NCBI GenBank assembly: GCA_965224465.1
Contig: OZ245049.1
Location: 420,001 to 452,000, forward strand
Origin: Flavobacteriaceae bacterium
Lineage (GTDB): Bacteria; Bacteroidota; Bacteroidia; Flavobacteriales; Flavobacteriaceae
DNA length: 32,000 nt
Direction: 5' to 3'
Shown: in pieces, positions 27,139 through 27,301 of the stretch
Numbering within the stretch: the first letter of the stretch is position 1
Layout of the letters: each line of letters begins with the position of its first letter
The notes under the pieces: model-generated
Told to the model about the DNA's origin: nothing
The model's input: only the letters and a program-made list of their open reading frames with translations
Databases searched by the model: none
Translations under genes and position numbers: made by a program

Positions 27139-27301
27139 GTCTTAATCCTTGCTATATTGGATGATGTACTTGAATTCGGACGATGTAGGCTATTCAGATA
27201 ATTGCAATTAAGTCTTAATCCTTGTTATAGTGGATAATGTACTCGAATTGAGTTTACATCAGATCAAACGGCAAACTTACGGAAGTCTTAATCCTTGTTA
27301 T
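27139..27301 (+). CRISPR. Degenerate orphan CRISPR-like mini-array: 2 full repeats and 1 truncated repeat, 2 spacers
   Basis: 38-nt repeats at 27139-27176 (GTCTTAATCCTTGCTATATTGGATGATGTACTTGAATT) and 27212-27249 (GTCTTAATCCTTGTTATAGTGGATAATGTACTCGAATT), 34/38 identical. A third copy matches only its first 17 nt (27285-27301). The period is exactly 73. The two 35-nt spacers are unrelated to each other. No cas genes in the window. Confidence 0.6.

Follow-up and report, generated by a model that had tools for sequence, protein, structure and literature searches.

A probable trailer-end remnant of a type III-A/CAPP-family CRISPR array near IS110-type elements in a Flavobacteriaceae genome

Orphan (isolated) and degenerate CRISPR arrays are a well-known class in bacterial genomes. 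Among intact systems, Zabrady et al. (2021, PMC8211822) describe the helicase-Cas1-CAPP_B-Cas2 module as nearly exclusive to Bacteroidetes type III operons. For mobile elements of the IS110 family, a rule by which the guides of a bridge RNA pair with their targets has been described for IS621 (Durrant et al. 2024, PMC11208160). We analyzed a 32-kb stretch of Flavobacteriaceae DNA, referred to here as the window, in which a short run of repeats, R1 to R3, lies near an IS110-family element (Table 1). The results suggest that positions 27139-27301 are very probably the trailer (oldest) end of a former array of the type III-A/CAPP family, which is now an orphan and most likely inert fragment.

Table 1. 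Coordinates of the array fragment and of the elements around it
Feature	Position	Strand	Details
Interspersed element, ~80 nt	27052..27132		Trailer-side bound of the array; second copy at 48-127, 83% identity
R1, trailer-most repeat, degenerate	27139..27175	-	37 nt; CRISPR-DR7 full-length, 23.3 bits (cut-off 37); 4 differences from R2
Spacer 1	27176..27211	-	36 nt; unrelated to spacer 2
R2, well-preserved repeat	27212..27248	-	37 nt; CRISPR-DR7 model 1-37 of 37, 35.1 bits (cut-off 37)
Spacer 2	27249..27284	-	36 nt
R3, truncated repeat	27285..27301	-	17 nt nearest spacer 2 kept; leader-side 20 nt gone
Hairpin element abutting R3	27297..27370		Outside the IS sequence conserved with L121-L123
IS110-family IS, core ~1.57 kb	27371..28944	-	Transposase CDS 27409-28701; 243-nt left-end non-coding segment 28702-28944
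Miniature IS110 derivative, ~330 nt, limits approximate	28982..29311	+	Left end to left end with the full IS
Second arm and second 43-nt top copy	29312..29370		Arm 29312-29327; top copy 29328-29370; direct repeat

Repeats, spacers and related arrays

Inspection of the sequence, together with a repeat finder, located repeat starts at 27139, 27212 and 27285, separated by 73 and 73 bp and sharing the motif GTCTTAATCCTTG(C/T)TAT. On the plus strand, R1 reads GTCTTAATCCTTGCTATATTGGATGATGTACTTGAAT(T) and R2 reads GTCTTAATCCTTGTTATAGTGGATAATGTACTCGAAT(T), and R3 reads GTCTTAATCCTTGTTAT, after which (17 nt) its similarity to R1 and R2 stops completely. The 17-mer was matched three times in the 32-kb window at up to three mismatches, against 0.21 matches expected, and none of 100 shuffles reached three. 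Over 38 aligned positions, R1 and R2 disagree at 4, and the alignment score of spacer 1 against spacer 2 was at noise level, indicating that the two are unrelated. A sequence-only reading of the locus had reported the exact 73-bp spacing, the four differences between two full repeats, the unrelated spacers and the 17-nt third repeat, all of which were confirmed; the repeat and spacer lengths that it gave (38 and 35 nt) were revised to 37 and 36 nt once the repeats had been aligned with the Rfam model and with arrays of the same family. The GC content of the repeats and spacers (32-40%) is near that of the window (34%). Tandem Repeats Finder reported no 73-bp array, as expected because the spacers differ. 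A candidate fourth, degenerate repeat at 27093-27126 was rejected, as 37% of shuffles aligned to R2 equally well; the apparent repeat at 27093 is part of the 80-nt interspersed element.

A permissive Rfam scan matched R2 on the minus strand to the full CRISPR-DR7 model (RF01320) at 35.1 bits, 1.9 short of the family cut-off of 37, with E = 1e-4 over 2.9 kb and 1e-5 over 241 nt. R1 was also matched over its full length on the minus strand, at 23.3 bits against the same cut-off. In the 37-nt Rfam alignment, AUUCGAGUACAUUAUCCACUAUAACAAGGAUUAAGAC is set against the CRISPR-DR7 consensus gUUugAGAGcAAaAUCCAuUAAAACAAGGAUuGAAAC, and the end of the repeat in reverse complement, ...GGATTAAGAC, corresponds to ...GGAUUGAAAC of the consensus. 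This is the informative end of the repeat, and a resemblance to repeats of the GTTT..GAAAT kind, noted earlier from the letters, had been read on the wrong strand. RNA folding of the repeat gave a weak 4-bp stem that was no better than those of shuffles (z = -0.03 and -0.83). The stem of the Rfam model is likewise weak, and the folding result counts neither for nor against CRISPR.

Related arrays were collected from one genome per species by requiring three GTCTTAATCC motifs at CRISPR spacing. More than 120 loci were found to contain true arrays in which the repeats begin with GTCTTAATCC, with up to 84 repeats and a period of 69-77 bp. The motif GTCTTAATCCTT was common to the window and 54 arrays, nearly all of them from Bacteroidota, a set that takes in metagenome arrays fetched later. 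R2 agrees with these 54 arrays at all of the invariant or near-invariant positions (1-12, 14, 15, 17 and 20-23), and R1 carries C at position 14, where 54 of the 54 have T. In a metagenome scan with a 28-nt pattern, nine contigs were recovered, and arrays of up to 51 repeats matched R2 in 27-30 of the first 30 nt. The arrays L127, L129, L132 and L135 contain up to 51 repeats of GTCTTAATCCTTGTTATAGTGGATGATGCTCTCTGAC, the first 28 nt of which differ from R2 by one, and the 37-nt repeat of L130 and L137, GTCTTAATCCTTGTTATAGTGGATAATGTAGGGATAC, is identical to R2 over its first 30 nt. No fully identical 37-nt repeat was present among the arrays found, the last 7 nt differing from those of every relative.

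Judged by these alignments, 27139-27301 is a genuine CRISPR remnant, as had been proposed; the CRISPR-DR7 match, just under its cut-off, and the near-identical repeats in cas-associated arrays both bear this out. It is most improbable that the repeats arose by chance or constitute a tandem or interspersed repeat of some non-CRISPR kind. Only two full copies are present, the repeat RNA folds no better than shuffles and R2 falls just below the Rfam cut-off, but the full Rfam model is covered, 30 contiguous nucleotides are identical to a repeat that lies beside cas2, CAPP and cas1, the 73-bp period is typical of the family and the spacers are unrelated. The fragment also appears to be drifting, since R1 has C14 in place of an invariant T and repeats within true arrays of the R2-related family depart from their consensus at only ~0-0.5 positions each. 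The four differences between R1 and R2 thus agree with the earlier description of the array as decaying.

Orientation of the array and search for its cas genes, leader and targets

To orient the fragment, the gene order around related arrays was compared. The genes for cas2, CAPP type B (NCBIfam NF040562, 359-431 bits) and cas1 adjoin the arrays in L049, L076, L130 and L132, where their coding strand is the opposite of that on which the repeats read GTCTTAATCC, and their flank of the array is the one equivalent to positions above 27301 in the window. L136, the system with the closest repeat, encodes cas10/csm1, csm2, csm3, csm4 and csm5 (the last three RAMP), a 524-aa protein, a PIF1/RecD-like helicase, cas1, CAPP and cas2; its contig stops ~50 nt past cas2, and the leader and array were seen on the shorter contigs L130 and L137. 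Csm1 (Cas10), Csm3 and Csm4 also flank the arrays L105 and L040. At the loci with the adaptation module, the genes are on the strand where the repeat reads ...GGATTAAGAC, and cas2 is followed by a leader of ~100 nt and then the array.

The side that the window lacks is the one that bears the leader and cas genes in all of the related loci examined. Transferred to the window, the orientation of these loci indicates that the crRNA strand is the minus strand and that the cas genes and leader belong above 27301. On this comparison of sequences, the functional strand is minus. R1 is then the trailer-most repeat and the surviving piece the oldest end of the array, because the leader and cas side of the relatives is the missing side.

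These comparisons point to an array that would have descended from the Bacteroidota type III-A (Csm) systems with a helicase-cas1-CAPP-cas2 adaptation module. In the intact state, the cas operon and a leader of ~100 nt would have lain on the high-coordinate side, with transcription on the minus strand. By analogy with the usual AUUGAAAC tag, the pre-crRNA would presumably have been cut inside each 37-nt repeat to leave the 8-nt tag AUUAAGAC.

We then looked for the remainder of such a system. No cas genes or cas pseudogenes were detected by a Pfam scan of the ORFs of at least ~95 aa across the 32 kb, and tblastn of the window with ten Cas proteins of L136 returned noise only, confirming the initial impression that no cas ORF was nearby. 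The window ORFs encode housekeeping products, among them a topoisomerase, PriA, ribosomal proteins S6, S18 and L9, MnmE, shikimate kinase, methyltransferases and transporters; the remaining ones are the IS110 transposase and a protein of the SWIM/SNF2 kind, which continues past the window end. The type III-A features present in the relatives (cas10/csm1-csm5, and cas1-CAPP-cas2 linked to the array) are absent from the window. The sequence past R3 is unlike the leaders of related arrays. A 43-nt direct repeat near R3 was considered as a CRISPR leader and rejected, as it resembles none of the leaders in L130, L132, L076, L049 and L019. A promoter and terminator scan of 26600-29500, which used a sigma-70 consensus ill-suited to Bacteroidota, stayed at chance level.

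Searches of the two spacers against phage and plasmid sequences, a check that the sequence-only reading had put forward, gave nothing above chance. Among 50,697 phage records, the best partial matches were 17-19 nt long (E >= 0.4), and no protospacer of either spacer was present in IMG/VR (24-mers), in plasmids, in the 138 fetched loci or elsewhere in the window. None of the arrays in those loci has a spacer in common with the fragment. None of the best 120 of 851 CAPP homologues is on a contig that matches the source genome in length, which is weak evidence that it lacks CAPP. The fragment is an orphan within the window, and we infer that it is an orphan in the genome as well.

The fragment is most likely inert and drifting. 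Its inertness would follow from the lack of a leader or promoter of its own and of adjacent cas genes; R1 is already without an invariant base. It is possible that the 5.24-Mb genome encodes, outside the window, a compatible type III system that makes the fragment usable in trans. It is unlikely that the fragment is a working mini-array, with spacers that are still transcribed and are then processed and put to use in trans by Cas6 and a type III system from another part of the genome. R2 is intact at all family-invariant positions, and the IS110 transposase gene lies upstream on the same minus strand as the crRNA sense, where it could be a source of read-through. Set against this are the degenerate base in R1, the lack of a leader or of similarity to related leaders, the chance-level promoter scan with its ill-suited consensus, the lack, among the best 120 CAPP homologues, of any on a contig matching the source genome in length and the failure to find protospacers.

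The truncated end and the neighboring IS110-type elements

The sequence-only reading had placed the truncation of R3 at the junction with an IS whose end was marked by a 32-bp direct repeat, and this placement did not hold. The IS encodes a 430-aa transposase ORF with DEDD_Tnp_IS110 (PF01548, E 5e-15) and Transposase_20 (PF02371, E 3e-10) domains in Pfam, and its relatives L122 (89% DNA identity), L123 and L121 align with the window only within 27369-28943. The junction at the left end of the IS is ..GCGTCATTGCGAG|ATGGTAGATTTTTTTT and that at the right end is ..AAAATTACGTCAATGGTA|AGGAGGCACG. The three relatives limit the IS to 27371-28944, ~70 nt from the break, and the direct repeat does not form the IS end, which is conserved only from ~27371. 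The direct repeat itself is 43 nt long at 91% identity (27297-27339 against 29328-29370) and constitutes the top of a hairpin. The stem arms of this hairpin are at 27300-27309 (ATCTCAAAGT) and 27340-27349 (ACTGTGAGAT), the outer arm reaches 27370, and the predicted energy of 27297-27370 is -17.1 kcal/mol. R3 therefore abuts a hairpin element and not an IS110 end. The join, GTCTTAATCCTTGTTAT|CTCAAAGT at 27301/27302, contains only a 5-nt microhomology (GTTAT vs GTGAT), and from the limits of the conserved IS sequence we conclude that it is not an IS110 left or right end junction. The window IS is neither part of the CRISPR array nor located at the break. The missing 20 nt of R3 are absent from the far side of the IS block.

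We examined whether the direct repeat was a common element elsewhere; a 26-mer of it is absent from IMG/VR, the JGI metagenomes and all fetched loci. On the far side of the IS lies a miniature IS110 derivative, whose left-end-like stretch (aligned over 28950-29034) shares 67-69% identity with the left ends of L122 and the window IS (E 3e-6 to 7e-5). The last 16 nt of the miniature (29296-29311) reproduce the IS right end perfectly in inverted orientation and are followed by a hairpin arm and the second 43-nt copy. Taken together, the right end, arm and stem of one side and those of the other make up an imperfect inverted repeat of ~50 nt, with a score of 64 against a null maximum of 36. Across 27297-29370, the right end of each IS110-type element is against one arm, the arms being inverted and the 43-nt tops direct; this arrangement is a circular permutation of [mini-IS, arm, top, arm, IS]. 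The quasi-palindrome could have arisen by integration of a circle at a hairpin or by duplication followed by deletions. No published description was found of an IS110 pair arranged left end to left end within 43-nt direct repeats.

A hairpin-bearing element likewise makes up the right flank of the IS in L121-L123. The idea that IS110 relatives are inserted into CRISPR repeats, as they would be if bridge RNAs targeted CRISPR, was rejected, as L121, L122 and L123 have no such repeat and sit in hairpin-bearing elements that read ..ACGTCA.TTCG-AG|TG-hairpin-TATCGAGAA. These relatives are flanked by long imperfect direct repeats, one of 45 nt at 96% identity and one of 76 nt at 84%, the sites being 168-2199 in L122 and 131-205 and 1884-1958 in L121. 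In L122, the IS lies inside one unit of a tandem series with units of ~210 nt, and an uninterrupted copy of the target, ACCACGTCAGTTCGAG^TGGTTTAAAGGG..., is located 130 nt downstream.

The left-end non-coding segment of the IS was inspected for a putative bridge RNA. At 28813-28822 (minus strand) it reads TATGCGAGTG in the window and (A/G)TTCGAGTG in L121-L123, and the left flank, TGCG-AG in the window and TTCG-AG in L121-L123, covaries with this RNA segment by one base. The TATGCGAGTG segment is consistent with a candidate left target guide of a bridge RNA with an AG core. The putative bridge RNA region has no Rfam match, and assignment of a right-target guide from the four elements was abandoned as ambiguous. 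The right flank of the window IS starts AAGG/AGGA where three of three relatives have TG, and it might not be the flank with which the left one was originally paired.

Where donor and target sites are on the same molecule, IS110 recombinases can catalyze excision or inversion between them (PMC11208160). Such a recombinase might itself have broken R3 and removed the leader and cas genes, guided by a bridge RNA to delete or invert the stretch from an IS end to a pseudo-target within the CRISPR repeat. The ability to act on two sites of one molecule, the two IS110-type elements less than 2 kb from the break, the at least three copies of the IS in the source genome and the AAGG/AGGA right flank, perhaps not the original one, all favor this reading, which we nevertheless regard as unlikely. 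Canonical recombination would leave an IS end at the junction, whereas the 27301/27302 join lies ~70 nt from the IS right end and leads into the hairpin element, and the rest of R3 is not found across the IS region.

The leader, all of the cas genes and the leader-side 20 nt of R3 are absent here, and the break is joined to the hairpin element that flanks the IS110-type elements. Loss of the rest of the CRISPR locus by some deletion or replacement is suggested because the R3 join is not an IS110 end junction and the missing part of R3 is not beyond the block. An IS-associated loss is plausible because of the at least three IS copies in the source genome; no reconstruction fits cleanly.

Setting of the fragment and comparison with known systems

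On the trailer side, the window was compared with L124, a MAG of Flavobacteriaceae whose MnmE is 94% identical. The two share DNA from mnmE to 27053 at 84% identity and then diverge. Relatives at the mnmE locus had been suggested earlier as a source of synteny with an intact array, and of this the synteny was found, as far as 27053, and the array was not, L124 having none. Its downstream region (12116-21425) instead encodes RNase T, an SNF2-like helicase, DUF4391, an N6/N4 DNA methyltransferase and a ResIII-type endonuclease, and the window at 29474-32000 encodes the SWIM/SNF2 protein, with partial PADLOC matches to the ZorD and DpdE helicases. Since the gene sets of the window and L124 differ past 27053, the site downstream of mnmE looks like a variable island of defense type, with the CRISPR fragment at its edge.

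Several repeated or structured sequences were observed in this region and elsewhere in the window. The 80-nt interspersed element contains two small hairpins, starts at the L124 synteny break and ends 6 nt before R1. The non-coding stretch at 26609-27053, downstream of mnmE, is conserved with L124 within the 84%-identity alignment. Within it, 26785-26892 on the minus strand is G+C-rich and matches Rfam Flavo-1 at 23.7 bits, below the cut-off of 42; the stretch possibly encodes a small RNA. Between genes, an interspersed repeat of ~160 nt is present at 2874-3032, 7473-7637 and 12353-12500 (inverted), with 79-93% identity, and a similar sequence, judged by eye, lies just past the synteny break in L124. 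A tandem repeat at 21522-21815 (108-nt units, 2.7 copies, 76% matches) is inside an FKBP-domain ORF (21483-22439, minus strand).

The divergence at 27053 bears on the possibility that the fragment arrived already truncated in horizontally acquired DNA of the mnmE-downstream island, which we consider rather unlikely. The homology with L124 stops there, the gene set of L124 downstream is quite different, the window has in its place the SWIM/SNF2 protein with partial ZorD- and DpdE-like matches, and small interspersed elements bound the array on both sides. But no donor was found, 27054-29473 has no plasmid match, the hairpin 26-mer is absent from IMG/VR and the JGI metagenomes, and the GC content of the repeats and spacers is near that of the window.

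More speculatively, 27297-29370 might be a composite mobile unit of two IS110-type elements that entered as a circle through recombination at the hairpin, and its arrival, or recombination between its copies, might account for the loss of the cas operon, of its leader and of all but a small part of the type III-A array. This is improbable; if it were true, an RNA-guided immune system would have fallen to a recombinase that is itself RNA-guided.

Taken together, these results suggest that a type III-A/CAPP CRISPR system, or a piece of one that had been received, was formerly present at the variable locus downstream of mnmE in the lineage of this Flavobacteriaceae bacterium, and that it was lost later. 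The fragment is real but ordinary, as such CRISPR relics are common. For annotation, the 163-bp stretch should be recorded as a minus-strand CRISPR fragment, orphan and degenerate, and the neighboring IS as 27371-28944, not 27300-29370. With no more than two full repeats, the fragment will probably be missed by CRISPR finders. Nothing here is unusual apart from how the neighboring IS110 pair is built, and this alone might reward closer study.

Compared with the bridge-RNA elements of the IS621/IS110 family, the window IS has the same DEDD and Transposase_20 domains and likewise combines a long non-coding left end (243 nt) with a short right end (38 nt), and a candidate guide segment of its putative bridge RNA matches the left target and core in the sense orientation (TGCG-AG; TTCG-AG in the relatives). 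It differs in its apparent core, which is AG and not CT, and in being paired left end to left end with a miniature derivative within 43-nt direct repeats.

With the Bacteroidota type III-A/CAPP arrays (RF01320), the fragment shares the 37-nt repeat, the 73-bp period, unrelated 36-nt spacers and the core GTCTTAATCCTTGTT.T..TGGA (in reverse complement ...UCCA...AACAAGGAUUAAGAC), as well as the minus-strand orientation, deduced from the cas genes in five related loci. In contrast to those arrays, it has only 2.5 repeats, of which the two full ones have diverged at 4 positions, it has no leader and no cas gene within 27 kb on one side and 4.7 kb on the other, and the last 7 nt of its repeat, leader-proximal in the crRNA sense, are unlike those of any relative found. 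With orphan and degenerate arrays it has in common the lack of adjacent cas genes, degenerate repeats and a position in a variable island beside mobile elements. Nothing notable sets it apart from that class in general; here the break can be placed within a repeat, and the part that was kept is the trailer end.
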